NCBI GenBank assembly: GCA_964630055.1
Contig: CAZVRA010000002.1
Location: 79,021 to 143,020 of the forward strand
Direction: 5' to 3'
DNA from: an uncultured Candidatus Saccharibacteria bacterium
GTDB lineage: Bacteria; Patescibacteriota; Saccharimonadia; Saccharimonadales; CAZVRA01
Length of the DNA: 64,000 nt
Shown here piece by piece: positions 20,161 through 63,858 of this stretch. The translations under genes were made by a program, and so were the position numbers. Numbering within the stretch: position 1 is the stretch's first letter; each line of letters opens with the position of its first letter. The notes under the pieces were generated by a model that was not told the DNA's origin, did not search any database, and worked only from the letters and a program-made list of their open reading frames with translations.

Positions 20161-20247
20161 CCATAAGAGTTATGAGCTGGTCAATACGATGGCAAATTAC
20201 TGGTAATGGGAGTTAGGCTTTTAGGTAAGATTTAAATATCTAGATAT

Positions 20248-21594
20248 TTAAAAATATTTAAAAAATTTGTTTTGTTGTTTAACGCTAGATATTAAATTTT
20301 TGTAAAAACTTAGTTGCTCGTCAACTGGCATTATAAGAGGTTCTGGATGGATAGGCTTGGCAGAGGTAATAAATTTTGTGGCCAATTGGCAGTGCTTTAT
20401 GCCCAACATTGCCAGCTCGATAATAATTTCAGGGGTCATTTCCCTACTCAACTTGCCTGGGTTGGCCGAATATATAATTGGCCAAGCGGATTTGCGCCGG
20501 GCGGTCAGCAGTTTTTGAATAACTATGGTGACACGACCGCGCTGCATATCTTGTTGCCAGTCTTTGAGGTCATCGCTTAGCTGCCGACAGATCAAGTAGT
20601 GATGAAAGTACTGCGTTACGTCAGCTATTTTATTGGTGGCACCGGCTGCTTCTAAAATCCCTATTGGAGCTAGGATGTGACCGTAAGAGCGCCAAGCCAA
20701 ATGCGACAGATCACCGTAATTTGGCAGACTTTTTAAGTAAAATTTCTGACCCGGCAAGCTTTTGGCTTGGGCGTTTAATTGTTCCCAGGCATTTGCCTCG
20801 TCGGTTATGTTTAGCCAGCTGTCTAGCCTATTTTGGAAAAGCAAATTTTCTGGCAGAGCTTGCCTAAAATATTTATAAGCCAACCTAAGGGCGTAGTTTG
20901 CAACACTTAGCATGTATCGCTCAAGTGGCCTGTCGTTATCAATAAAATCATCGTATAGCATGTAAGCCAGCCAACCATTGATGCTGCCTAAGTTTAGGGC
21001 ATCGACTGTGTTTTGCTCGACTTCAAGGCCAAAGGCATTTTTGATAATGTCAGCAATGGTGGCTATTTGATGTGATTGGTGGGTGCTTTGCAGCCTGGAA
21101 AGTGTCAATTGGTAGCCGGCTATCAGGTTATGCAAAGACCGGTCATGTGTTTGGCTGGCGATAATGTAGGGAGTCTGCTTTTTGGTTGTTTGCTTAATAT
21201 ACTTTGGTGTGTTTTGCGGATTTGATATTTTTTGTTTATGCCACGCGGCTAAATAATTTTTATGATTTTTATCATAAGACTGGCTACTGAGTAAACTAGT
21301 GTTTTTAATAGCTTGGTCCAAAAAACTGTTTAGCGGCAATAAGCTTACCCCTTGCCTATTGAGGTAGATTGCGATCAGGGCGTTTAGCTGCACGGTGGCT
21401 GGATCAAGCCAATCATTTAATGATGATTGGCGTCGAGCTAACCTGTATGGGCCACCTGGTTTTGCCTCGTTTTTAATAAGCCATTTGACTATTTGAGCTT
21501 GGGTTTGGGCACTATTGTGATGATTTGGGGAGTTTACCTGGAGTTCTAGTAGCTTGATTATGGTTAGATTGCTCATGATAATTTGGTGATCCAT
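20248..21594 (-). CDS. isoprenyl-diphosphate-synthase-fold-like protein (ComQ-like candidate)
   Basis: Two Asp-rich motifs in IPPS order and context: MLYDDFIDNDRPLER and RQLSDDLKDWQQDMQRGR. Its start overlaps the kinase gene end by 83 nt, and no SD was seen. Confidence 0.45.
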   Translation of the reverse strand: MDHQIIMSNLTIIKLLELQVNSPNHHNSAQTQAQIVKWLIKNEAKPGGPYRLARRQSSLNDWLDPATVQLNALIAIYLNRQGVSLLPLNSFLDQAIKNTSLLSSQSYDKNHKNYLAAWHKQKISNPQNTPKYIKQTTKKQTPYIIASQTHDRSLHNLIAGYQLTLSRLQSTHQSHQIATIADIIKNAFGLEVEQNTVDALNLGSINGWLAYMLYDDFIDNDRPLERYMLSVANYALRLAYKYFRQALPENLLFQNRLDSWLNITDEANAWEQLNAQAKSLPGQKFYLKSLPNYGDLSHLAWRSYGHILAPIGILEAAGATNKIADVTQYFHHYLICRQLSDDLKDWQQDMQRGRVTIVIQKLLTARRKSAWPIIYSANPGKLSREMTPEIIIELAMLGIKHCQLATKFITSAKPIHPEPLIMPVDEQLSFYKNLISSVKQQNKFFKYF

Positions 21595-23062
21595 ATAGTA
21601 TGTCGGGCGTCATGGTTTTTGTTGACGATTTGATTGACATAGGATTTTGGCATAAATTAACAGTAAATCTGGTGCCATCAGATGGATTTGAAGTAACAGA
21701 TATATTGCCAGCAAAATCTTGTTCGACAAATTGTTTTACAAGGTGTAGACCAATGCCCATATTGGGTTGAGCCGATTTTTTGGTGCTAAAAAACGGTTTA
21801 AATATCTGATCTAGCCGATCCTCGGGTATCCCCTGGCCCCAGTCACGAACTGCTATTTCTACAAAGCCAGGCATGGTTTTGTTAATTTTGGCCGTAATTT
21901 TTACCTGTCTTTTTTCGGTTTGTGGTTTTTGTTTTTTAGAATTAGGCTGAAGGCTGTAGGATTCTATGGCATTGGCAATAAGGTTGCCAATTAGCTGACA
22001 GAACTTTGCAGAATTACCTTTAATGGTTAAGTTTGTGGGTGATAGCGAAGTGTATATTAGTTTTACGTCTGCCGAACGGGCGCGATGTTCGATGATGTTT
22101 AGTATTTGTTTTATCTCTGCATCAATCCGGAATTTATGATGGTTGGCTTCTTGTTTAAGTTGGTGCCTTGCGGCACTTATGTATGATTCAATTGTTCTAA
22201 GACTAGCCACGGTTTGTGCTAAGGCTTGCTTTTTGTTTGTTGTGCGCCTGACCTGTCTAGATTGTAGGTGGTCAAGATTAATAGTGGCGGCGGCCAGCGG
22301 GTTAGCTATGTCGTGGATTAAGCCAGCACTTAATCTGCCAAATTCGGCAAACCGTTCAAGCTCCATAATCCTTAACAATTGGGCTTCTTCGAGTTCTTTG
22401 GTGCGCTTTTTGACTGTTAACTCAAGCTGGTCTCTTTGCTCCAATAATTTACGTTCTGATGTGCGGGCACGTTTTAGGGACTGGTCTATTTCTCGGTTAG
22501 CTAACCAACTTACGAGCGCAATAACGCTATAGACCAGCGCAAAACCTAAGGCATCGGCAGCTTCTAACTTGGCTCTTAGCCAACTATAGTTAGGGCTAAG
22601 ATGCCCGTTGGCTTGCAACCAGGCAATGATACAAATTGCCATAGATTGCATTATTGCCACCAACAATCCAGACTTTGCACTGATTAGGACTCCGGCAATG
22701 ACTATTGATAGACATAGTAGAAGCTGTGCCATTGGCAAGTTGAAGCTCCATTTTAGTACTAAATGAATACCGTAAGCTTCTAGGAGTGCAAATAGTGCTG
22801 TCGCAGCTATTTTGTAATGTCCTCGACGCGACAAATACCAGAAAAAGCATAGACTTGCAGTGAAGATGCAGAGTATACCAATGGAGCTTTCTGGATTTGG
22901 CACCGATTCGGTGAATCGGTTAATTGCCGATACGATGATGGCCATTATTCCGGCAGTTGTCAGCCCGGCTAATAGTAAGTTGGTTATTAGCTCGCGGCGG
23001 TAACAATCTGGATCTGATGCTGACCTGGGTGACAGTAGTTTCTGACGCAATTTTTGTCTCAT
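21512..23062 (-). CDS. sensor histidine kinase with ~6-TM N-terminal membrane domain
   Basis: About six hydrophobic helices in the first ~190 aa with short loops, then a coiled coil. H-box LIHDIANPL, N-box NLIANAIES, G-boxes DWGQGI and GIGLHLV. Confidence 0.85.
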   Translation of the reverse strand: MRQKLRQKLLSPRSASDPDCYRRELITNLLLAGLTTAGIMAIIVSAINRFTESVPNPESSIGILCIFTASLCFFWYLSRRGHYKIAATALFALLEAYGIHLVLKWSFNLPMAQLLLCLSIVIAGVLISAKSGLLVAIMQSMAICIIAWLQANGHLSPNYSWLRAKLEAADALGFALVYSVIALVSWLANREIDQSLKRARTSERKLLEQRDQLELTVKKRTKELEEAQLLRIMELERFAEFGRLSAGLIHDIANPLAAATINLDHLQSRQVRRTTNKKQALAQTVASLRTIESYISAARHQLKQEANHHKFRIDAEIKQILNIIEHRARSADVKLIYTSLSPTNLTIKGNSAKFCQLIGNLIANAIESYSLQPNSKKQKPQTEKRQVKITAKINKTMPGFVEIAVRDWGQGIPEDRLDQIFKPFFSTKKSAQPNMGIGLHLVKQFVEQDFAGNISVTSNPSDGTRFTVNLCQNPMSIKSSTKTMTPDILYGSPNYHEQSNHNQATRTPGKLPKSSQ

Positions 23063-23278: not shown

Positions 23279-23974
23279 TTAGTGTTTTTTACTTATTGTT
23301 CTTGGCGGTAGCTCAATACGATATCCCATGCCATGGACCGTCTTTATGAGGTTACGGCCAAAAGGTCTGTCGACACGGTCCCTGAGATGTTTGATATGGA
23401 CGTCTATGGTATGGAGGCCGGTGTCAGATTCGTCTGACCAAATATGGGCCGCCAAACTTGCTCTTGACACTACGATTCCAGCATTTTGCATCAGATACTC
23501 GAGTATATCGAATTCTTTGCGGCGCAATTCTATGGGGTTGCCGCTTCGCTCGACTTTGCGATTTGTGCTATCCAAGGTAAGATCGGCAATAGACATCCTG
23601 CTACGACAATAGCTGCTATCTCGGTTTCTAAGCATGGCTCTGAGCCTGGCTCTTAATTCGTCTAGACTGAATGGCTTTGTTAGGTAATCGTTGGCACCGC
23701 TATCTAGCAAAATAACCTTGCTAATTATTTTAGCTTCACCGCTGATGACTAGAATAGGCGTTTGAATGCCAAGACTTCGTAAGTGCTCGCAAACTTTGAG
23801 ACCGGGCATATCTGGCAGATTGAGGTCTAGAAGGATGCCGTCGTAACTACTAGTTTCGGCTTTTTGTATGCCGGACATGGCCGACTGGGCAGTATCGAGC
23901 GCATAATTAGGCCCAAGCGCCCTATAAAGGGCTAGCGTTAAGCTCGTATCATCCTCGATAATAAGTATTTTCAT
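23279..23974 (-). CDS. OmpR/PhoB-family response regulator
   Basis: REC domain (EDD...DLNLPDM...KP) plus a winged-helix output domain (LRRKEFDILEYL...VHGMGYRIE). Confidence 0.9.
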   Translation of the reverse strand: MKILIIEDDTSLTLALYRALGPNYALDTAQSAMSGIQKAETSSYDGILLDLNLPDMPGLKVCEHLRSLGIQTPILVISGEAKIISKVILLDSGANDYLTKPFSLDELRARLRAMLRNRDSSYCRSRMSIADLTLDSTNRKVERSGNPIELRRKEFDILEYLMQNAGIVVSRASLAAHIWSDESDTGLHTIDVHIKHLRDRVDRPFGRNLIKTVHGMGYRIELPPRTISKKH

Positions 23975-24046
23975 TTTTTAACTAAGGCTCCTTTTGCTGG
24001 CCTTATTATAGCTAATCTGCGCAGTGTCTATAGTATGCCAGCCAAA

Positions 24047-24066
24047 TGTTAAATAATTGTTAAATT
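24047..24066 (-). promoter_or_regulatory. direct-repeat box site 1 (AATTTAACAATTATTTAACA on the minus strand)
   Basis: TTTAACA repeated at 11-bp period. On the minus strand it is followed by CATACT/TACTAT at 9-11 nt and TATAAT at 36 nt. It lies 73-92 nt upstream of the RR ATG. Confidence 0.5.
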
Positions 24067-24115
24067 TTGCCAAAAATCTTTTTCTAATGGTCGATCACTC
24101 ATGAACGCATAATAT

Positions 24116-24138: not shown

Positions 24139-24208
24139 GATACTAAAAACATGTTAAAATATAGAACGTGTTTGGCAATTATTGATCAATTTTTGTTAAT
24201 CATTTTAA

Positions 24209-26611: not shown

Positions 26612-29065
26612 CTAAGCGGCCTTTTTAGGCTTACGGCTGCGGTTGCCGCTAGACTTTGTGGACTTTTTTGCTGTTTGTCTAGTTGTTCGGGCAGTTGATC
26701 GGACGCCACGAGCTGGTCGTTTGCGAGCTGGCGCTTCGGCCAATAATTTTTTAGCCTGCTCGGCATCAACGGTTTTGGCATCGACATCTTTAGGAATCTT
26801 GGCATTTTTGGTGCCATCGGTTACGTACGGCCCAAAACGCCCATTCAAGACTTTTAAGCCGTTACCAAAATCGGCAATGTTCTTGGCCGCTTCGGCAGCC
26901 AGCTTGGCATCGTATAGCTCTTGAGCTTTAGCCAGGCTAATCCGATGTGGGTCCTCTGGTTTAATGCTGACAAATAATTTGCCAACCTGAATATACGGCC
27001 CAAAACGCCCAATATTGGCTTTGATTTCTTGGCCATCTTTGGTTTGACCAACTAACCGTGGTAGTTCAAAAGCTTTAGTTGCTTGCTCCAATGTTACGGT
27101 ATCTATTCGAGTGCCTTCCGGCAATGGTGCGAAGTGTGGCTTGGCGGCTTCGTCTTCGGTGGCTCCTAGCTGCAGCATGGGCCCAAAACGTCCGAATCGA
27201 GCAATAATTGGTTTGCCCGATTTGGGGTCGATGCCCACTTGTCGGCTCTCACCTACACTGCTTCGGTCTATGCTGCCCGACTGCTCTATTAACTTGTGAA
27301 ATGGCTGATAAAAATTGTGGAGCATGGTGTTGCGCTCTAGCTTATCTTCGGCAATTTGATCAAAATCTTCTTCTACATGGGCGGTAAATCCATAATCGAC
27401 GATGTTGGTAAAATGCTTGGTTAGGAAATCGCTAATGAGTTCTCCGCTAGGGGTCGGTACTAATTTGCCGCGGTCAGATCCTGATTTTTCTTGTTCGATG
27501 CTGCGTTCTACGACCTGGTTATTTGCTAATTTATTTTTGCTGCTTGGCGAGTAGCTAAGCACGATAATATCTCGCTCAACTCCTTCATTTTCGCCTCGTT
27601 GCACATAGCCACGAGTTTGAACGGTGTCGATAATCGTGGCGTATGTGCTGGGGCGGCCAATCCCCAGTTCCTCCAATTTTTTGACTAAGCTACCTTCGCT
27701 GTAGCGAGCTGGTGGTCGAGCAAAAACCTGTCGAGCCGTTGCTTGCTCTAAGGTTAGCGGATCTCCACTGGCTACTGGCGGTAGCAATATTAGGCTACTA
27801 TCTTTTTTGGTGGCATTATAAACCTTAAGAAATCCGTCAAAAATAACTACTTCGCCTTTGGCTTCGAAGGAAGTGTTTGACTTGGTGTTAATGTTTTTAT
27901 CTGAGTCTGAATTAACGGGTATGGTAATAACGGTCTTTTCGAGCTTGGCTGGTGACATCTGCGAAGCGAGTGTGCGACGGCGTATTAGATCGTATAATTT
28001 TTGGTTATAACTGTCGCTGCTAGCTTTTTGAAGAGCTATGTTGGTTGGCCTGATAGCTTCGTGAGCTTCTTGGGCGCTGGAATTTTTGGTGCGGAAATTA
28101 CGGGTCTGAACGTATTGTTTGCCGTATTCTTTTTCTATAAAGCTGGCAGCGCTGGCAATTGCCTGTTGGCTTAAGTTGACGCTATCGGTACGCATGTAGG
28201 TGATCTTACCTTCTTGGTATAGCTTTTGAGCAGCTGCCATTGTGGCTTTGCTGCTAAAACCCAGTTTAGAGTTAGCTTCTTGTTGCAAAGTGCTGGTGGT
28301 AAACGGAGCCCCAGGGTTGCGAGTAGCTGGGCTTTGGGTTACAGAGGATACGACAAAATCTTGGTTGTTTAGGCCAGCCAAAAAAGCTGCTGCCTGCTGT
28401 TCGGTATCGAATCGTTGGGATAATTCTGCGCTAAAATCTTGTTTTTTGTGCAAAAAACTAGCCGTTACTTTGAACTGGCTAGAGCTTTGGTGAGCACGAA
28501 TTTCCCGTTCGCGTTCAACCAATAACCTCACGGCTGGGCTCTGGACACGGCCGGCACTTTTGCCTCCTGGTACTTTTTGCCAGACAACTGGACTGAGCTC
28601 AAAGCCCACAATGCGGTCCAGAATTTGCCGGGCCTGCTGGGCCTTTACTAAGCTCATATCTACCGTACGCGGCTGCTTGATTGATTTTGTTATAGCATCT
28701 TTTGTTATTTCGTGAAAAACGATTCGTTTGGTGGTCTTTGGATCCAGCTTGAGGACTTCGCATAAATGCCAAGCAATTGCTTCACCTTCGCGGTCTTCAT
28801 CGGTTGCTAGCCAAACTGCCTGAGCAGATTTTGCGGCTTTTTTGAGTTCGGCAATGACTTTCTTTTTTTCGGGGTCGATTTGGTAGGTGGTCTTAAAGCC
28901 ATTACCTATATCTATTGGTGGCGAACCATCTGGATTTTTTTTGGCGATTGACCTAATATGGCCAATACTACTTAGGACATGAAAATCAGGACCCAGGTAC
29001 TTTTCGATAGTTTTTGCCTTGGCCGGACTCTCTACTATTACTAAATTGGCGGGGTTTTTACTCAT
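26612..29065 (-). CDS. topA: DNA topoisomerase I
   Basis: Toprim VESPAKAKTIEKYLG, active-site YMRTDS, three C-terminal GRFGP(Y/M) repeats and a Lys/Arg tail. Start set at MSKNPANL (29065), not the track start 29110. Confidence 0.9.
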   Translation of the reverse strand: MSKNPANLVIVESPAKAKTIEKYLGPDFHVLSSIGHIRSIAKKNPDGSPPIDIGNGFKTTYQIDPEKKKVIAELKKAAKSAQAVWLATDEDREGEAIAWHLCEVLKLDPKTTKRIVFHEITKDAITKSIKQPRTVDMSLVKAQQARQILDRIVGFELSPVVWQKVPGGKSAGRVQSPAVRLLVEREREIRAHQSSSQFKVTASFLHKKQDFSAELSQRFDTEQQAAAFLAGLNNQDFVVSSVTQSPATRNPGAPFTTSTLQQEANSKLGFSSKATMAAAQKLYQEGKITYMRTDSVNLSQQAIASAASFIEKEYGKQYVQTRNFRTKNSSAQEAHEAIRPTNIALQKASSDSYNQKLYDLIRRRTLASQMSPAKLEKTVITIPVNSDSDKNINTKSNTSFEAKGEVVIFDGFLKVYNATKKDSSLILLPPVASGDPLTLEQATARQVFARPPARYSEGSLVKKLEELGIGRPSTYATIIDTVQTRGYVQRGENEGVERDIIVLSYSPSSKNKLANNQVVERSIEQEKSGSDRGKLVPTPSGELISDFLTKHFTNIVDYGFTAHVEEDFDQIAEDKLERNTMLHNFYQPFHKLIEQSGSIDRSSVGESRQVGIDPKSGKPIIARFGRFGPMLQLGATEDEAAKPHFAPLPEGTRIDTVTLEQATKAFELPRLVGQTKDGQEIKANIGRFGPYIQVGKLFVSIKPEDPHRISLAKAQELYDAKLAAEAAKNIADFGNGLKVLNGRFGPYVTDGTKNAKIPKDVDAKTVDAEQAKKLLAEAPARKRPARGVRSTARTTRQTAKKSTKSSGNRSRKPKKAA

Positions 29066-29176
29066 GTTTATACGAATCTTTATCTTAACGGCATTTGTGT
29101 GCAAATGCAACAGCGCCTTACCTTACACGATTAGCTACCTATTGGTCAAGTAGTAGTTGCCTTAGTTTTGGTAAAT

Positions 29177-30115
29177 TTAGAGTGCCGACCATTGCCCAGG
29201 AGTTAAGCTTCTTATGTGGCCAGACAACTCTAGCATGGTTAAGGCTTGCTGCACTTGGCGCAGAGGTAACGCTGATTTTTCTAACAATTCGTTTGTATAT
29301 ATTATGCCAGAGCGAATTTGTTGGAGTAGTTTAGCCTGGACTTGGTCTTTGGGTAGCGGCAGTTCTTGAGCTGGCACGGCGTTTGGAACGATAATATCTA
29401 GAATATCTTGCAAGCTGGTGACGGGTATTGCTCCCTGCCTTATTAGCTTGTTGGTTCCTTGGCTAGTGGGACTGTTAATATTGCCAGGCACAGCAAAAAC
29501 ATCTATGCCAAGCTCCAGTGCAAACTCGGCTGTGTGCAAACTACCACTACGCTGAGCTGCTTCTGTAATGATTACTGCCTGGGCAAGGCCAGCTATAATA
29601 CGGTTTCTAGCCACAAATTGCCAGCGGCCTGGGTTAGCTGACTCCCCTGGTCCGTACTCGCTTACTAGACTGCCCTTTTGCGACAGTATTTGATGAGCCA
29701 ATGGTTGGTGGCTAGATGGATAAACATGCTCAATGCCACATGGCAATACGGCTATGGTATGACCACCGGCTGCAATAGCCGCCTGGTGCGCCAGCGAGTC
29801 GGCACCGATGGCTAGGCCACTAACAATAGTAACGCCTTTTAATGCTAGCCCACTCGCAATATAATTAGTTACCCATCGACCATAGCTACTAACTGCTCGA
29901 CTGCCTACAATAGCAACTGTTGGGCCGCCTAGCAGACGGAGTGGATCTAGACCCATATACCACAGTTGTTTAACCGCTGGTTGGACCAGGTTTAATTGCC
30001 CCAAACTTGCCGGGTTTATAGGGTGGTACTGACTTTTTGCTGGTGATTTATTGATACTCATCATGCTTATGTGCCATGCAAGTAATGCCATGACATTGTA
30101 TTGATTATTTAACAA
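29177..30115 (-). CDS. dprA: DNA processing protein DprA
   Basis: Rossmann-like core GSRAVSSYG...SGLAIGADSLAHQAA...NRIIAGL...SGSLHTAEFALELG. Start uncertain: TTG 30115 or an ATG at 30091, 30064 or 30061. Confidence 0.85.
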   Translation of the reverse strand: MLNNQYNVMALLAWHISMMSINKSPAKSQYHPINPASLGQLNLVQPAVKQLWYMGLDPLRLLGGPTVAIVGSRAVSSYGRWVTNYIASGLALKGVTIVSGLAIGADSLAHQAAIAAGGHTIAVLPCGIEHVYPSSHQPLAHQILSQKGSLVSEYGPGESANPGRWQFVARNRIIAGLAQAVIITEAAQRSGSLHTAEFALELGIDVFAVPGNINSPTSQGTNKLIRQGAIPVTSLQDILDIIVPNAVPAQELPLPKDQVQAKLLQQIRSGIIYTNELLEKSALPLRQVQQALTMLELSGHIRSLTPGQWSAL

Positions 30116-30130
30116 AATTTATTTTTAGTA

Positions 30131-30159
30131 TTGACATAAAGGCATTTATTTGCTAAAAT
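30131..30159 (+). promoter_or_regulatory. near-consensus sigma70-type promoter (TTGACA-17 nt-TAAAAT)
   Basis: TTGACA at 30131-30136, an exact 17-nt spacer, TAAAAT at 30154-30159. Confidence 0.6.
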
Positions 30160-30232
30160 CGCAAACTGTGATTCTGTATAAGCATTGCTTGCAGATACCA
30201 CGTACCTTCTACCCCAAATTCTAACCGGCAGT

Positions 30233-30252
30233 TGTTAAATAATTGTTAAATT
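30233..30252 (-). promoter_or_regulatory. direct-repeat box site 2 (identical 20-mer to site 1)
   Basis: Exact 20/20 match to 24047-24066 in the same orientation. TAGAAT lies 9 nt downstream on the minus strand, pointing at dprA. Extra TGCTAA/TGTTAG hexamers flank it. Confidence 0.5.
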
Positions 30253-30593
30253 ATCGTAATAATTGCTAAGTGTTAGATTGTTTTAGAGCGCGCGAGCCAA
30301 AGTTGTTACCCTCCACTTTTTTTCGCTGCCTCCGGTTAGCCGGATTGGGCAGCGCTCTAAGACAAACTAACCCCTTTAACCTGATGTCTGTTCCAGATTG
30401 CGTTTTCGCATTTTGGACCGACCCCAATCAGTGTGAGTACGTCAGTATGACCTCGTTTATCCTCGGATAAACCAGGCGGCGCGAGTCTTTATGGAGTTTT
30501 GGACATCGACGCTTCACCGGGTGGGTTGAAGGGTGGTTTATAGAGGTAATCCCGGCGGTGGGCCAACGAACCGGGGTATTTGCCTCTTGAAAT

Positions 30594-30633
30594 GAGCCTC
30601 TAGCGGTGCCCACCCCCTCTAGAGGCTCTTTTT
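30594..30633 (+). terminator. rho-independent terminator
   Basis: GAGCCTCTAG / CTAGAGGCTC 10-bp stem, 15-nt loop, TTTTT run. The loop GCCCACC is complementary to GGTGGGC at 30557-30563. Confidence 0.7.
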
Positions 30634-35086: not shown

Positions 35087-36058
35087 CTAATTGGGGTTAG
35101 TTGGGTTAGGCGGGATGGTTTGTGGTTTGTCTATAACGGCTTGTTCGGAACTGGCTTCTTGCTCGCTGACTTGGTTGATCACTGCCTGAGCGGTAGGTAC
35201 GGCCGCCGAAGTGGCAGCTTTGATTTTGGTTTCTTTGGCTTCTTCCTGTGCTATTAGAGCCTCCAAGTTACTGCCTTGTTGCGACAAGTCATTAATAGGT
35301 GTAATTACTTTGTTGTGAACACTAGTTTTGCTGTCGTCGGGTGTAGCGGCCGGTGCTGCTGTTGGGACGCTGGGCACAGCTGCAATCGAAGCACCAGCAG
35401 CATCGTTTGGCACGGGGGTGGGTGCTACAACTTGTTCGTTAACCACCGGTGCTGGGCTGACAGCAGCTACTGCGCTGGCCAGAACCTGATCGTTAGTAGG
35501 TGTTGGTGTTGGCGCCGGTGCGGCAGCATCCTGAGCCGCGGCTGGCTCGACAATAGTAGCGTTACTGACGCCATCTATGACTGGAGTTGGAGTTGGAGCA
35601 TCTACAGAACTATCGGTTGGCGTAGGTATAGCGGTACTTATGCCGTCGTTGCTGGTAGCTGCTGGTGCGGCTACTGGAGCCGGAGCTGTTTGACCATCCA
35701 GGACCTGTTGGGCTACTTGGACGACATCTTCTAGTGTGACTTGGGACTTAACAAGGTAGCGGTCAGCACCCAGCTTGTCGGCCCGAGTTTTGTCCTCGGC
35801 CTGGCTAAGGGCGGTCATCATAATTACTTTGGTTTCTTTGGTTTCGGGGGTGCTGCGCAGTATGTCTAGCATGTCAAAACCACTAATTTTGGGCATCATG
35901 ATGTCGCTGATGATTAGGTCGGGCTTTTCTTTAACAGCTAAGGCTAGAGCCTCTTCGCCGTCTTTGGCCGAGACAATTTCGTAGCCCTCTGCCAGTAGGC
36001 GCGCGCCGTAGATTTCTCGCAGATTATTGTCGTCTTCGACCAACATGATTTTTGCCAT
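35087..36058 (-). CDS. response-regulator receiver protein with ~200-aa Ala/Pro/Thr-rich tail, no DNA-binding domain
   Basis: REC domain (LVEDD...SDIMMP...KS) followed by low-complexity PAPVAAPAAT... sequence. Confidence 0.75.
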   Translation of the reverse strand: MAKIMLVEDDNNLREIYGARLLAEGYEIVSAKDGEEALALAVKEKPDLIISDIMMPKISGFDMLDILRSTPETKETKVIMMTALSQAEDKTRADKLGADRYLVKSQVTLEDVVQVAQQVLDGQTAPAPVAAPAATSNDGISTAIPTPTDSSVDAPTPTPVIDGVSNATIVEPAAAQDAAAPAPTPTPTNDQVLASAVAAVSPAPVVNEQVVAPTPVPNDAAGASIAAVPSVPTAAPAATPDDSKTSVHNKVITPINDLSQQGSNLEALIAQEEAKETKIKAATSAAVPTAQAVINQVSEQEASSEQAVIDKPQTIPPNPTNPN

Positions 36059-36160
36059 ACTAGGTTAATCCTTCGTGCGCTTATGTTAACTTATTAGCAT
36101 TATACCATGGTTTTTGGGCACTTTATCAACCAAAAATAAAGGGTTCAAAAAGCGCAATAA

Positions 36161-37549
36161 TTAATTAGCCGACTGGGGCCGTATAATATTGGGTTCGGCG
36201 TTTGGTTGGCTAGTAGCAGCGGCATTTTTGGCAGTTTTTTGACTGGCCTCGACAAGCTGGCTGGACGATATTCTAGGCAAATCTATATAGAACGTGCTGC
36301 CCTTGTTTAATTCGCTTTCTACCCAGATGCGGCCGTTATAAAGCTCAATTATTTTGCGGCAGATAAAAAGCCCTAGGCCGGTGCCGCCAATTGTGCGGGT
36401 GGCACGGTTGTCGATGCGATAAAATTTTTGGAACAGATGAGGTATGTCTTCGGTGGCTATGCCAGCACCGGTGTCGCGAACGTAGATTTGGACAATATCG
36501 TCGTCGCCGGTTAGGCCAATCGATATGCCGCCTTGGTTGGTATATTTTACGGCATTGTCGAATAGGTTTATTATAATTTCGCGCAAGCGTTCAGGATCGA
36601 CCATAACGTAGTACAGTGGTTTGAGCACCCTTGTGCTGCCGACTTCTTCGCCGTCATCGGTTGTTGGGAGTGGGGTTGCCCGCTGCTTATTGTCGCCCAC
36701 AATATATTCGAGCCGCAGGTTTTTTTTCTGGGCGGCAAAACGCAAATCTTCTACTAATTTGTCCAAAAAACTGCTTATTTCGGTGGCAACTGGATGGTTA
36801 CTAATACGCCCATCTTCTGCCCTGGCACTGGTTAGTAGGTCTTGGAATAATGTGCCAAGATGTTGCGTGGCTTCGTGGGCCCTTAGCAAATATTGTCGTC
36901 CGCGGTAGTCTATGGTGCTGACTTTTTCGTTTAGCGCCAGCGCCAAGTAGCCTTCGATGGCTGCCACCGGTGTGCGCATTTCGTGGCTGGCCGTGCTGAT
37001 AAATTCGGCGCGCTGCCTTTCGGCTTGGCGCTCTTTGGTGATGTCTCTAAAAACTCCGACAAGTCCGGTGATTTCGTTGTCGTCGTTTATTAATGGTGCC
37101 AGGCTGATGGCGACATTAGGTGTTTTGTTGGATTTGGTCACTAAAAGCAGGCTATCTTCGCGCAATGGTTCGCCTTGTTCTAGCACTTTTTCGAACGGGT
37201 TATCTACGTCCTGACAGGGGTGTCCTTTGTGATCGGTCAGTTTTATGACGGTGTTGTAGGCCAGGCCGCTAACTTCTTGCGGCCAGCCAGTGATTTGAGC
37301 AGCAGCTGGGTTAAACATGCGAATAATTCGATCCGAGTCGACCACAATAACGCCGTCATTTATGGAGCTTAAAATAATGTCGGATTGAACTTTTTCGGCC
37401 TGCAATTGTTCATGCAGAAGGCCATTGTTAGCTGGCGCTTGGCCGGCGCTGCCGCCCTTTTGCCGTAACTTTTGTAAAAGTAAAGATATCCCGAACACTA
37501 CTGCCGAGATAACTAGACCTATCCCACCGATAAAAAATAAAATACCCAT
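36161..37549 (-). CDS. PAS-domain sensor histidine kinase
   Basis: N-terminal TM, PAS-like region, H-box SHEMRTP, HATPase (DTGAGI, GTGLGL). Confidence 0.85.
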   Translation of the reverse strand: MGILFFIGGIGLVISAVVFGISLLLQKLRQKGGSAGQAPANNGLLHEQLQAEKVQSDIILSSINDGVIVVDSDRIIRMFNPAAAQITGWPQEVSGLAYNTVIKLTDHKGHPCQDVDNPFEKVLEQGEPLREDSLLLVTKSNKTPNVAISLAPLINDDNEITGLVGVFRDITKERQAERQRAEFISTASHEMRTPVAAIEGYLALALNEKVSTIDYRGRQYLLRAHEATQHLGTLFQDLLTSARAEDGRISNHPVATEISSFLDKLVEDLRFAAQKKNLRLEYIVGDNKQRATPLPTTDDGEEVGSTRVLKPLYYVMVDPERLREIIINLFDNAVKYTNQGGISIGLTGDDDIVQIYVRDTGAGIATEDIPHLFQKFYRIDNRATRTIGGTGLGLFICRKIIELYNGRIWVESELNKGSTFYIDLPRISSSQLVEASQKTAKNAAATSQPNAEPNIIRPQSAN

Positions 37550-41203: not shown

Positions 41204-41524
41204 ATGACAACTACTTTTTGTGCAACATCTGGGCGCTCGGTATCTGGCATGGGCCGCAAGACCATTAATCGTGAGGTAACGGTAACTGGTTACCATTTTG
41301 CCAATCGAGCGCGCCAGAGCTTTCCTAGCCAGATTGAGTTCGATAACCAGCGGGTAACTTTTGCCGAAGCTGGCATGCGGTATTTGGTCAAAAAAGGACG
41401 GACTTTTGTAAAGCTATTCGATGTTAGCGACGGCAGTACTACATATAGGCTACGCTACGATCCAGATCAGGTGATCTGGACATTAGTTCATACAACTCCA
41501 GAGCCAAGAGGAGCCGGGCTGTGA
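41204..41524 (+). CDS. hypothetical protein translationally coupled to umuD-like gene
   Basis: 106-aa ORF with GGGGGA SD-like sequence upstream. Its stop overlaps the next start in GTGA. Confidence 0.4.
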   Translation: MTTTFCATSGRSVSGMGRKTINREVTVTGYHFANRARQSFPSQIEFDNQRVTFAEAGMRYLVKKGRTFVKLFDVSDGSTTYRLRYDPDQVIWTLVHTTPEPRGAGL

Positions 41525-41928
41525 GCAGCCCGGCCATTCGGCCAGTCTCGGAAGAAGTCACTGTACTGGCCGAAGCTGGCGTCTCGGTGCACGACGGGTT
41601 TCCCAATGCGGGCTTCGATGGAGCGCTAACTGGCCTAGACATTACTAGGCTGCTAGTTCAGAGGCCATCTAGCACATTTTTTATGCGGGCCCAGGGCGAC
41701 AGCGGCCAAGAGCATGGCATTTGCCATAATGACGTAATGGTTATAGACCGAGCGGCTCAGCCGTTAGATTCTGATTTGGTAGTTTGGTGGCGTGATGGCT
41801 TTAATGTTTCGACAGCAAAGGTGGCTGTCAAGTTGCGGCTAGATACGCCGATATGGGGCGTGGTAACGGCCACTATTCGTTTGCGTCGCCCGCCCGAGGG
41901 TTTTGTTGGTGAGCCACGTGGCAAATAA
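41521..41928 (+). CDS. umuD: UmuD-like S24 peptidase (LexA-fold)
   Basis: GFPNAG...STFFMRAQGDSG...NDVMVIDR pattern matches UmuD GFPSPA...TFFVRVxGDSM...GDLLVVD. Lies immediately upstream of umuC. Confidence 0.65.
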   Translation: MSSPAIRPVSEEVTVLAEAGVSVHDGFPNAGFDGALTGLDITRLLVQRPSSTFFMRAQGDSGQEHGICHNDVMVIDRAAQPLDSDLVVWWRDGFNVSTAKVAVKLRLDTPIWGVVTATIRLRRPPEGFVGEPRGK

Positions 41929-43225
41929 TTTGGCTGCTCCGGCCATTGCCCTGGTCGATTGCGATAATTTCTTTGTATCTTGCGAGCGGCTATTTAGACC
42001 CGACCTGGAGGGCCGCCCAGTAGTTGTTCTTAGTAGCAACGATGGCTGCGTTGTTTCCCGGAGTCAAGAAGCCAAAGCCATAGGAATCCCCATGGGCGCG
42101 CCAGCTTTTCGTTACCGAGAGCTTTTTATTCGCCAACGAGTCGTGCAGTTTAGTGCCAATTTTGAGCTATATGGCGATGTATCACGTCGTATAGTTCGCA
42201 TACTAACAGAGCATACCCCCCGCCTAGAAGTTTATTCTATAGATGAGTCGTTCCTAGACCTGGGCGAGCTAGGTAACAATATTTGTAAGACAACATATGT
42301 CAGGCAGTTACGGCAAAGGCTGCTTGGCGAAGTCGGCATACCGGTGTCGATTGGGGTGGCTACTACCAAAACACTGGCCAAGCTAAGTGCCGCAGTGGCC
42401 AAGCGGACCACCAATTTACAGGGCGTACTAGACACAACCACTTGTTCCAAGGATGCAATCAACAACTGGCGTCGTAAGTTGCCAGTTGAAGAAGTTTGGG
42501 GTGTCGGCAGGCGTTATGGGCCGCTGCTCAGGTCGCAAGGGCTGGCTACAGCCCAGGATATGGCAACGATGCGGCCACGGCTAGCTCGTAAATTAATGGG
42601 CGTTAGGGGCGAGCAGACCTCTCGCGAGCTAAGCGGCCAGCCTTGCCTGCGCTTGCAGCCAACCGACTCCCTGCCCAAAAGCATCATGCGCACTCGCACT
42701 TTTGGCCAAGATACCAGCAGCCTAGACGTTTTAGTGGCTGCTCTAGCACGTTTTGCTTCGGTAGCTACTCATCGATTGCGGGCTTCGGGCCAGCTTGCTA
42801 CTACTGCCGGCTGGTTTACTACCAGCAGCCCGCATAAACCTGGCTATGGTTACTGGCAGCACAAAGTTAAGCTAACCGTGCCCACGGCCGATCCGGCCAT
42901 TGTTTTAGACCTCATCCGTCCTTCGATTTTTGGGCAGCATAATTCTGGTCGAATCTATCATCGGGCTGGTTTTTGGTTGGCAGACTTCGTTCCTTCCAGG
43001 AGTCTACAGACAGACTTATTTGGTCAGCTAGACCCAGCTATAGTCGATAGCCGGCGGTTGCGTTGGCAAGCTATAGATATGCTCAACAATAGATACGGAC
43101 GGCATACTATTCGTTTGGCGGCCGAAGATTTGGCTACAACTTGGCAGCCCAGCCCTAGGTGCCGTAGTCCAGCCTATACCACTAACTGGAGCGACATACC
43201 TATAGCTGCTTTCCAAGCTTTTTAG
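41903..43225 (+). CDS. umuC: Y-family translesion DNA polymerase UmuC-like
   Basis: IALVDCDNFFVSCERLFRPDL...VVVLSSNDGCVVSRS...YSIDESFLD motifs. The true start is probably GTG 41918, nearer the conserved N-terminus. Confidence 0.85.
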   Translation: MLVSHVANNLAAPAIALVDCDNFFVSCERLFRPDLEGRPVVVLSSNDGCVVSRSQEAKAIGIPMGAPAFRYRELFIRQRVVQFSANFELYGDVSRRIVRILTEHTPRLEVYSIDESFLDLGELGNNICKTTYVRQLRQRLLGEVGIPVSIGVATTKTLAKLSAAVAKRTTNLQGVLDTTTCSKDAINNWRRKLPVEEVWGVGRRYGPLLRSQGLATAQDMATMRPRLARKLMGVRGEQTSRELSGQPCLRLQPTDSLPKSIMRTRTFGQDTSSLDVLVAALARFASVATHRLRASGQLATTAGWFTTSSPHKPGYGYWQHKVKLTVPTADPAIVLDLIRPSIFGQHNSGRIYHRAGFWLADFVPSRSLQTDLFGQLDPAIVDSRRLRWQAIDMLNNRYGRHTIRLAAEDLATTWQPSPRCRSPAYTTNWSDIPIAAFQAF

Positions 43226-47100: not shown

Positions 47101-47124
47101 TAGTCACGATTCTAGTCACGATTC
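47101..47124 (+). repeat. perfect tandem 12-bp repeat TAGTCACGATTC x2
   Basis: Read directly. It starts 2 nt after a TATAAT (47094-47099) and ends 22 nt before the PEGA-gene ATG. Confidence 0.85.
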
Positions 47125-47146
47125 CTCAAAAATCTTTTAAAACTTT

Positions 47147-62638: not shown

Positions 62639-62965
62639 TTATTTGCTATCTATGCGGTAATGTTCCTGCATGTAAAGCAGATCTTTGACGAATCTATCTA
62701 GGCTGTCGTGAATAGTTTGATTGTCGTGTTCATCTATTAGTTTATCTAGGCTTGTGGCTAATGTGGCAAAGTATTCGCCTGACCTTACTTGTAAATGAAG
62801 ATCTGAACGATTAGGGTCTAGGTGCTGGCTAAAGCTACTACTGTCTTGGTAGTCTTGCCTGTCATGCAAATAATTGGTTGTCTGGCCGTCGTGGCTTGTA
62901 GCTGGTGCAGTGGGTATTAGTTTATAGTCTTGGACTGGATCTTGAGTTATTTTGTCAGTTGGCAT
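62639..62965 (-). CDS. hypothetical acidic protein
   Basis: 108-aa ORF overlapping the radC stop by 11 nt (same strand). Confidence 0.35.
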   Translation of the reverse strand: MPTDKITQDPVQDYKLIPTAPATSHDGQTTNYLHDRQDYQDSSSFSQHLDPNRSDLHLQVRSGEYFATLATSLDKLIDEHDNQTIHDSLDRFVKDLLYMQEHYRIDSK

Positions 62966-63758
62966 CGGCTGTGTCCTGTTTAGTTGATATGTCGTTTAAT
63001 ACACTTCGAAAGGCATCGTCGGCAATTATAAGGTGGTCTAGTAGTTCTATGCCTAGTATTTGGCCGGCCTTCATTAGTTGCTTAGTTACACTTATGTCGG
63101 CTTCGGTTGGCGTTAGATTTCCAGAAGGATGGTTGTGCCCAATAATAATTGCTACGGCGCCCTGCTCTATTGCTGGGCTAAATACTTCGCGTGGGTGCAC
63201 AATATTGGCCGTTAACGATCCGACGGATATAACCTCGTCATGTATGACTTCGTGGCGACTGTTTAAATACAAACCACGGAGCTGTTCTTTGTTGCTTAAT
63301 GATATACCTTTGATATGGTCGAATGCTTGTCTAGCAGTTCGCACAAAAACTGGCCGGCCGGATCGTTTTTCGAAAAAACGTCGCCCCAATTCAAAACCAG
63401 CTATCAATTGGCAAGCCTTGGCGGTGGGTATATTTAGGGTTTGAGCTAATTTTACTGGGTCGGTTTCGTGCATTATGGCGGTTTCGCCGTATTCTTTTAA
63501 GACACGGTGCGCCATGTTCATGACATCTTCTTTTTTGGTACCAACTCCCCATAAAACCGATACAATTTCGGCCATAGACAGATTGGAGGGGCCATATTCT
63601 ATGAGGCGTTCACGGGGTCGTTGGTCGTCCGGCAGGTCGCGGACACGAAGTACATATCGGGTGTCTTCGCCAACTATAACTCCGTAGTCTGTTAGCTTGT
63701 AAGCGGTGGGTTTATAATTTACTGGGAACTTTGAATGTGATGATTGTTTGGTCGGCAT
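62955..63758 (-). CDS. radC: RadC-like JAB-domain protein
   Basis: HNHPSGNLTPTEADISVT JAMM-like motif and HhH region. Start placed at ATG 63758, because the track TTG 63827 lies inside the direct-repeat box. Confidence 0.8.
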   Translation of the reverse strand: MPTKQSSHSKFPVNYKPTAYKLTDYGVIVGEDTRYVLRVRDLPDDQRPRERLIEYGPSNLSMAEIVSVLWGVGTKKEDVMNMAHRVLKEYGETAIMHETDPVKLAQTLNIPTAKACQLIAGFELGRRFFEKRSGRPVFVRTARQAFDHIKGISLSNKEQLRGLYLNSRHEVIHDEVISVGSLTANIVHPREVFSPAIEQGAVAIIIGHNHPSGNLTPTEADISVTKQLMKAGQILGIELLDHLIIADDAFRSVLNDISTKQDTADAN

Positions 63759-63817
63759 GTCTTTAGTATAACAAGTAGTGCCTCGATACAAACCCTTAGT
63801 TTGGACTTTTTTAGAAA

Positions 63818-63837
63818 TATTTAACAAGTATTTAACA
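63818..63837 (+). promoter_or_regulatory. direct-repeat box site 3 (TATTTAACAAGTATTTAACA)
   Basis: 18/20 identity to the reverse complement of sites 1 and 2. TATTTAACAA occurs twice at 11-bp period. GATAAT lies 6 nt downstream on the plus strand. Confidence 0.45.
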
Positions 63838-63858
63838 ACTGTGGATAATTAAATATTT

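Follow-up and report, generated by a model that had tools for sequence, protein, structure and literature searches.

What is a 20-nucleotide (nt) sequence doing at three intergenic places of one Saccharibacteria genome, next to a response regulator gene and next to two genes linked to competence? The question was examined on a 64,000-nt stretch of contig CAZVRA010000002.1 from an uncultured Candidatus Saccharibacteria bacterium, called the window hereafter. Saccharibacteria are obligate episymbionts whose genetics has so far relied on natural transformation, and no literature on the regulation of DNA uptake or processing in this group was found. An earlier note, made from the sequence alone, had described the repeated box and taken it for the operator by which the adjacent OmpR/PhoB-family response regulator controls its own operon. 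Our analysis leads to the same view: judged from sequence and geometry, the box is probably the operator of this regulator in an activator-dependent promoter.

The box and its three copies

The 20-mer TGTTAAATAATTGTTAAATT is present in identical form at 24047-24066 (+) and 30233-30252 (+), and positions 63818-63837 match it at 18 of 20 letters on the reverse strand. These coordinates of the earlier note are exact, and its statement that the recurrence is beyond chance was confirmed by 100 dinucleotide-preserving shuffles, none of which gave 20-mer matches at <=3 mismatches. At all three sites the box consists of two 7-bp half-sites, TTTAACA, placed in tandem with an 11-bp period, which is the shared core that had been proposed. 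The core TTTAACA-N4-TTTAACA has exactly three perfect matches in the 64 kb, all three intergenic; the random or intragenic scatter that the note had named as speaking against an operator is not seen in the window. Counted at <=3 mismatches, the core occurs 16 times compared to 12.5 expected by chance, i.e. without excess, so that the perfect copies alone are remarkable. Between the three copies the 60-nt flanking stretches share 30-40% identity, the level of the background, and identity ends at the 20-mer. As the flanks are unrelated, it is the site itself that is conserved and not a larger duplicated element. The perfect boxes of the window mark the regulator operon (site 1) and both competence-associated genes present, dprA (site 2) and radC (site 3). 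This coincidence calls for caution, the category of competence-associated genes having been picked after the result was known; Pfam annotation of the rest of the window gave no further classical competence gene. The earlier note had noticed neither the genes next to sites 2 and 3, nor the RNA gene around site 2, nor the inversion of site 3 relative to radC, the one gene downstream of it.

Site 1 lies between the tRNA-Gln gene (+) and the regulator cluster on the minus strand, 73-92 nt upstream of the regulator ATG at 23974. On the gene strand a CATACT hexamer follows the box after 9 nt and a TATAAT after 36 nt, distances for which the earlier note proved accurate. Site 2 stands at the same distance, 9 nt, from a TAGAAT hexamer in front of dprA. 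The half-site hexamers are situated 10 and 21 nt from the -10 element, so that neither can serve as a -35. The box occupies the place of the -35 element, and RNA polymerase is therefore expected to need the phosphorylated regulator at about -23 to -40. A regulator dimer would sit on the tandem TTTAACA pair with its 11-bp period, and at the regulator operon and at dprA this pair would act from 9 bp upstream of a -10 hexamer that lacks a -35 partner. The transcription starts predicted from this layout are ~24024-24025 (-) at site 1 and ~30211 (-) at dprA. We infer on good grounds that the operon, which encodes the regulator, a 39-amino-acid peptide, a histidine kinase and a terpene-synthase-like protein, is positively autoregulated and that dprA is under the same control; dprA, possibly together with topA, would be co-induced with the operon. 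About 94 nt upstream of site 1, a weak extra box (matrix score 8.3), intergenic and not convincing alone, may be an auxiliary site, an assignment that we hold with low confidence.

Conservation of the box in related Saccharibacteria

The closest homologues of the window proteins belong to Saccharibacteria metagenome-assembled genomes. The footprint was established on ten related loci (L001-L007, L096, L097 and L099), whose regulators are 46-57% identical to that of the window. Upstream of the orthologous regulator, all ten carry a 7-mer, N4 (N5 in L097), a second 7-mer, N9 and a -10-like hexamer (examples in Table 1). The earlier note had made its reading depend on a box upstream of orthologous operons, and an equivalent one, 9 nt before the -10 hexamer, is what these loci contain. 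In L001-L006 and L099 the hexamer lies 7-10 nt before the start codon; this implies a leaderless mRNA and marks the hexamer independently as a -10. The box accompanies the regulator gene across differing neighbourhoods, which may be linked to superoxide dismutase, to a DEAD-helicase or to tRNA-Gln. The tandem-repeat operator replacing the -35 of the regulator's own promoter, as the earlier note had it, is thereby supported, the binding of the regulator being predicted from sequence.

Table 1. Box, spacer and -10-like hexamer upstream of the regulator gene in the window and in related loci, and upstream of dprA in the window
Locus	Arrangement
Window, regulator	TTTAACA-ATTA-TTTAACA-N9-CATACT
Window, dprA	TTTAACA-ATTA-TTTAACA-N9-TAGAAT
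L001	TTTAATA-GTTT-TTTAATG-N9-GATAAT
L003	TTTAATA-ATTA-TTTAATG-N9-GATACT
L004	GTTAAGA-ATTA-TTTAAGA-N9-TTAAAT
L006	TTTAATA-TTTT-TTTAATA-N9-TATGAT
L007	TTTAAAA-AATA-TTTAACT-N9-TACTAT
L099	TTTAATT-ATTT-CTTAATG-N9-AATAAT

This conservation becomes visible only once the last base of the half-site may vary: neither TTTAACA-N4-TTTAACA nor TTAACA-N5-TTAACA had a match in the first 80 loci fetched. The pattern [TG]TTAA-N6-TTTAA with a -10-like hexamer at N9 was found 12 times in 1.44 Mb of fetched loci, and seven of these occurrences concern the regulator or its operon in Saccharibacteria loci. The looser NTTAA-N6-NTTAA gave no match in ~85 kb of radC loci from another clade. With a leave-one-out position weight matrix, the site upstream of the regulator ranked first in seven of ten loci, second in the window and in L099, and third in L004. 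A matrix built without the window sites placed the dprA site of the window first and the regulator site second among 127,934 positions. The eight best matches of the matrix in the window are all intergenic, intergenic DNA making up 8.5% of the window. A weak matrix match upstream of a gene for 321 amino acids (47109-47141, -), also intergenic, has a poor second half-site and is unconvincing.

Boxes were also found inside the related clusters. L006 has a second one, followed by N9, TAGAAT, 8 nt and a leaderless ATG, in front of the terpene-synthase-like gene that belongs to this cluster. In L099 an inverted box lies ~58-75 nt upstream of a leaderless polyprenyl synthase gene, a distal and inverted arrangement which mirrors that of radC in the window.

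The predicted dprA promoter and a divergent structured RNA gene

Site 2 is located in the spacer between pth and dprA, which also contains an unannotated gene of ~470 nt for a structured RNA, transcribed away from dprA. This RNA element is conserved in four homologous loci (L081, L084, L090 and L093) and always adjoins dprA or topA in divergent orientation. Its promoter, TTGACA(30131)-17-TAAAAT(30159), is close to the sigma-70 consensus, scores 11/12, has a TG extension and is conserved as TTGACA-17-TA(A/G)AAT, with a predicted start at ~30167 (+); at the 3' end a terminator-like hairpin is followed by T5 (30594-30633). The alignment supports 74 predicted pairs with 95.9% of the cells paired, and 24 of the pairs show compensatory changes, compared to an average of 9.5 in 500 column shuffles and 2-6 in shifted controls. 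The G·U pairs are compatible with the plus strand alone. The RNA has C-rich single-stranded segments such as ACCCUCCAC and ACCCCUUUAAC. Rfam 15 gave no match at E<=10 for the window or at E<=1 for three relatives; RNase P, tmRNA (transfer-messenger RNA), 6S and SRP (signal recognition particle) RNA were rejected in the absence of an Rfam match.

The box of site 2 is carried by an insertion of ~45 nt specific to the window, in a variable linker of the RNA gene where the alignment has 3 nt in L090 and L084. At the position of the -10 hexamer, read in the direction of dprA, TGT-TAGAAT or TGT-TAAAAT, i.e. an extended -10, is found in three of the four relatives; L093 has AGT before TAGAAT, plus a TGT-TAAAAT 11 nt upstream. 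The window reads GGT-TAGAAT, without TGn extension and with the box 9 nt upstream. We propose, on the basis of this alignment, that dprA had a constitutive promoter of the extended -10 type, which in this lineage became regulator-dependent when the insertion put the box beside a -10 hexamer that was already there. Transcription of dprA would then begin within the RNA gene, antisense to the first ~45 nt of the RNA, and the 5' end of the RNA gene overlaps the predicted dprA transcript. Because the two predicted starts are convergent at a distance of ~45 nt, transcriptional interference or pairing of the antisense transcripts may occur.

A second two-component pair of the window, a PAS kinase and a receiver-only regulator (35087-37549, -), keeps its synteny with rluA-der-pth-dprA-topA in L090 and L093.

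The box upstream of radC

The core promoter of radC is an extended -10 placed 6 nt before the ATG, so that its mRNA is predicted to be leaderless. The deposited RadC has 290 amino acids and begins at a TTG (63827) inside the box. The ATG at 63758 is favoured because the homologues have 244-257 amino acids and because of the TGT-TATACT-N6-ATG layout. Counted from this ATG, site 3 covers -60 to -79, in inverted orientation, in the 100-nt gap between radC and the upstream gene of the same strand; the N9/-10 geometry is lacking there. This upstream gene is the orphan P0121, to the C-terminus of which the frame running off the window end is a 100% match; the coding score of this frame is 15.0, where the in-frame mean is 11.6 ± 4.4. 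Since P0121 is real, there is no plus-strand gene downstream of site 3, and such a candidate was rejected on the coding score and on the P0121 match.

In L096 the 70-nt gap that precedes radC contains a box GTTAATA-ATTA-TTTAATT, which is followed after 19 nt by a TATAAT and a leaderless ATG and is the only strong box in 20.7 kb. radC is therefore boxed in two genomes whose regulators are 57% identical. A role of the box at radC is plausible, and site 3 would be an upstream modulatory site of either sign.

Other arrangements of radC were noted. In another clade of Saccharibacteria (L100-L105) a palindrome GTGAA-N6-TTCAC is found ~35-55 nt upstream of radC and centred ~41.5 nt before the leaderless ATG; ~41.5 nt upstream is the classic position of activators of the CRP/FNR type. 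radC seems to be regulated across the phylum, by different regulators according to the lineage. A locus of Patescibacteria (L024, 10001-11407) contains an OmpR-type regulator (39% identity) with radC 93 nt further on the same strand. The window contains three perfect DnaA-box 9-mers compared to ~0.5 expected in 64 kb: one at 63840-63848 adjoins site 3, and two (2499-2507 and 2522-2530), at a distance of 23 nt from each other, are convergent and lie in the spacer that precedes mraZ.

Other readings of the box

Several observations weigh against an operator of the adjacent regulator acting at all three sites. Site 3 is inverted, and it also reads as a plain sigma-70-like promoter on the plus strand (TTAACA-17-GATAAT, 10/12). 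No box is present at dprA in L081, L090, L093 or L085, nor at dprA in any of nine loci of a metagenome scan anchored on TopA. The TAGAAT at dprA also belongs to a conserved segment of the RNA gene, and its presence does not prove a promoter. No clear covariation links the recognition helix to the half-site: in L004 and L006 the helix is identical, yet their boxes read TTAAGA and TTTAATA. Finally, the best regulator homologue is 59% identical, and the TTTAACA variant, like the dprA site, was seen in one genome only.

The sigma-70 resemblance raises the question whether the box is bound by another transcription factor, or whether TTAACA is a -35-like or UP-like element of ordinary promoters. TTAACA matches TTGACA at 5 of 6 positions and in the plus-strand promoter of site 3 it is the distal TTAACA that lies at the 17-nt spacing; moreover the regulator is a generic OmpR-family member, under all NCBIfam equivalog cut-offs, whose link to the site is indirect. 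At sites 1 and 2 and in the ten orthologous promoters, however, the distance to the -10 is not -35-compatible for either hexamer, and the box travels with the regulator gene from one neighbourhood to another. We regard this explanation as unlikely. A slimmer chance is given to the opposite orientation, TGTTAA-N5-TGTTAA, as the functional one. The box would then be WalR-like and control plus-strand units, namely tRNA-Gln and a DD-carboxypeptidase gene (dacX) at site 1 and, by blocking elongation at ~+70, the structured RNA at site 2. On the plus strand the box does fit TGTWAH-N5-TGTWAH (the WalR consensus), site 2 is ~70 nt inside the transcribed region of the RNA, and site 3 has the TGTTAA-type orientation relative to radC. 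The orthologous sites, on the contrary, are all TTTAAY-oriented with a fixed N9 to a -10 that points into the regulator gene, site 1 is ~150 nt upstream of the tRNA promoter, and the regulator reaches 112 bits for YycF/WalR where the cut-off is 340.

It is very improbable that the copies are remnants of a small repeat or mobile sequence, or of a local tandem duplication, without regulatory role. A decaying third 11-nt unit at each site suggests an origin by slippage, and site 2 belongs to a lineage-specific insertion; against this, the identity stops at the 20-mer between flanks at background level, no terminal repeats are present, and at two sites the box is placed exactly with respect to the -10, a position kept in relatives. 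A function of site 2 in the RNA itself, as an element of the structured RNA, is hardly credible: it would be transcribed within the RNA if the predicted promoter is used, but the four homologous RNAs do not have the segment, none of the covarying helices includes it, and no such RNA surrounds sites 1 and 3.

Comparison with known regulators

An operator of the adjacent regulator, the reading that we prefer, has counterparts in other bacteria. CiaR promoters of Streptococcus have the layout [TTTAAG]-N5-[TTTAAG]-N22 before the transcription start; the -10 element follows the repeat at 10 bp, and sites that function on the opposite strand are known at dlt and manLMN (PMC3091779, PMC6560143). The box described here likewise has tandem TTTAAN hexamers with an 11-bp period, a -10 located 10 bp after the second hexamer, no -35, and ~22-23 nt from the repeat to the (here predicted) transcription start. 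The two systems also share the own operon as target, opposite-strand sites and a link to competence physiology (PMC3091779, PMC6560143). The final G of the CiaR hexamer TTTAAG is essential (PMC3091779), whereas the last hexamer base is C here and T, G or A in relatives, TTAAG being found in L004 only. The recognition helix is TIDVHIKHLRDRV compared to VVEVYVSKVRKKL in CiaR (VVEVYVSK(V/I)RKKL), the targets are dprA and radC instead of htrA or the csRNAs (small RNAs of CiaR), and the phylum is another one.

The pho box of PhoB in E. coli is also an 18-bp tandem repeat (7+4+7) that replaces the -35 and lies ~10 bp upstream of the -10. TTAACA is the hexamer of PhoP in B. subtilis, whose box is TT(A/T/C)ACA-N5. 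The regulator differs from PhoB in scoring 148.7 bits, under the cut-off of 296.2, and its kinase, with six membrane helices, lacks the architecture of PhoR; no pst/pho or other phosphate-related gene was found at the three sites in the Pfam annotation of the window. As for the WalR (YycF) box TGTWAH-N5-TGTWAH, the reverse strand of the box fits it perfectly, but orthologues conserve the other orientation, the regulator scores 112.4 bits under the cut-off of 340, and there is no WalK-type kinase. The regulator would work like the CiaR and PhoB systems but is a separate one, specific to Saccharibacteria. The putative operator belongs to a known class of activator-dependent promoters; it is interesting for its targets, the proposed rewiring event at dprA and the organism.

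The regulator operon and its possible signal

The regulator has a receiver domain and a winged-helix Trans_reg_C domain, and scores under every NCBIfam equivalog cut-off. Between regulator and kinase lies a small open reading frame preceded by a strong ribosome-binding site. A counterpart of 35-40 amino acids exists at the same place in L004, L006, L007, L096 and L099, and it is annotated in relatives as a gene of 40 amino acids. The N-terminal part of the peptide is conserved (LL..ILTD..ARD) and leader-like; the C-terminal part is variable except for a Pro-Trp that is invariant in the six operons compared, with 2-7 residues after the Trp. The small peptides have no Pfam match and fall in no known family. 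Pfam matches of the kinase are limited to HATPase_c and HATPase_c_5.

In relatives, the kinase gene is followed by one for a protein of 633-643 amino acids and then by one for a short-chain polyprenyl diphosphate synthase. In its N-terminal half, which has a DDLDDT motif, the long protein is similar to the class II cyclase domain of drimenol synthase (E = 3e-11), and the C-terminal half has YDDFLD and QLNDDxxD motifs. U448, the terpene-synthase-like protein of the window, corresponds to this C-terminal, class-I-like half, the class II domain being mostly missing; its single-sequence AlphaFold model has a mean pLDDT (predicted local distance difference test) of 36 and is not usable. The PF00348 proteins of the relatives resemble ordinary short-chain prenyl diphosphate synthases, of the farnesyl or geranylgeranyl diphosphate (FPP/GGPP) type, and no PF00348 gene is found within the window. 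At L096 12285-15374, L099 9643-12804 and L006 12342-14273, an apparently bifunctional terpene synthase, with a class II DDLDDT domain and a DDxxD domain, and an FPP/GGPP-type synthase share the operon of the two-component system. The neighbourhood of the OmpR-type operon differs in every genome compared. A weak box-like site (20230-20262, -) upstream of the six-helix membrane protein that ends the cluster is intergenic and unconvincing alone.

The gene content recalls ComQXPA of Bacillus, where competence is controlled by a ComX peptide prenylated on Trp, together with a multi-pass kinase and a regulator (PMC4008528, PMC5331326). ComX-type precursors are recognized by a Trp within 5-10 residues of the C-terminus and a gene beside the kinase (PMC4008528). 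The operon resembles this system by a small precursor with a Trp near its C-terminus beside the kinase, found in the six operons compared, and by isoprenoid enzymes in the same operon, a multi-pass membrane kinase, a response regulator and a competence-linked output. It differs in the proteins themselves: the peptides have no PF05952 (ComX) match, the PF00348 enzymes of the relatives are FPP/GGPP-like where ComQ would be expected, the motifs of U448 are solely of the DDxxD type, no HisKA_3 match was obtained with the kinase, the regulator is OmpR-type (Trans_reg_C) and not NarL-type, and the gene order is another one. Pfam searches of the operon proteins and peptides revealed no homologue of ComX, ComQ, ComP or ComA. 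Quorum sensing, with which the earlier note had associated the feedback, is a hypothesis.

It is conceivable, if rather doubtful, that the operon with its regulator, Pro-Trp peptide, six-helix kinase and terpenoid enzymes forms a Saccharibacteria-specific autoinducing circuit that would switch on dprA and radC via the box, the signal being a terpenoid or else a Trp peptide carrying a modification, possibly a prenyl group. We infer this signal, like the binding of the regulator, the activation and the transcription starts, from the arrangement of genes and sites. If true, such a circuit would be a functional analogue of the ComQXPA or ComCDE control of competence, made from unrelated parts in a bacterium of the candidate phyla radiation, and at dprA it would override the divergent structured RNA gene.

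In pneumococcus, dprA and radC are the late competence genes with the strongest induction (PMC6560143). The analysis provides handles on their control in Saccharibacteria: a defined operator with a promoter architecture that is kept throughout the phylum, a candidate regulator, and dprA and radC as candidate direct targets. The dprA locus offers a possible case of regulon rewiring, in which a short insertion would turn a constitutive-looking promoter into a regulator-dependent one. The conserved structured RNA, hitherto unannotated, and the peptide/terpenoid gene set are also brought to light.

Features of the window

The features discussed above are listed in Table 2.

Table 2. Positions of boxes, predicted promoter elements and genes in the window
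Feature	Position	Strand	Remarks
Site 1	24047-24066	-	Gene-strand sequence AATTTAACAATTATTTAACA; half-sites 24064-24058 and 24053-24047
Site 2	30233-30252	-	Same 20-mer as site 1, pointing towards dprA
Site 3	63818-63837	+	TATTTAACAAGTATTTAACA on the plus strand; inverted relative to radC
Predicted -10 hexamer CATACT	24032-24037	-	9 nt after the box of site 1; without usable -35
Second candidate -10 TATAAT	24005-24010	-	36 nt after the box of site 1
Weak extra box TTTAACA-TGTT-TTTAGTA	24141-24158	-	~94 nt upstream of site 1; matrix score 8.3
OmpR/PhoB-family response regulator	23279-23974	-	Pfam: receiver domain and winged-helix Trans_reg_C
Small open reading frame, 39 amino acids	23105-23224	-	MKNQALEQILLQPELRTTEQMQAAGINNLLEQSLPWSQE; between regulator and kinase
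Histidine kinase	21512-23062	-	Six predicted membrane helices in residues 29-184, short loops; C-terminal HATPase domain
U448, terpene-synthase-like protein, 448 amino acids	20248-21594	-	Motifs YDDFID and QLSDDLKD
Protein with six predicted membrane helices	19597-20160	-	Last in the cluster; low confidence
dprA (DNA-processing protein A)	29177-30091	-	Pfam and NCBIfam; start codon according to P0122, giving 304 amino acids
topA	26612-29110	-	After dprA, same strand
Predicted -10 hexamer TAGAAT	30218-30223	-	9 nt after the box of site 2
Structured RNA gene, unannotated, ~470 nt	30131-30633	+	Diverges from dprA; pth-dprA spacer
Window-specific insertion, ~45 nt	30225-30269	+	Carries the box of site 2; variable linker of the RNA gene
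radC (RadC/JAB family)	62955-63758	-	Pfam and NCBIfam
radC core promoter and start	63756-63773	-	TGT-TATACT-AAAGAC-ATG; extended -10, 6 nt before the ATG
3' end of orphan gene P0121, 217 amino acids	63859-64000	-	100% match to the C-terminus of P0121

Two further features of the window were noted. A KwaB-like fragment (Kiwa defence) is present at its start (3-512, +), and an umuD/umuC-like pair is located at 41521-43225 (+).

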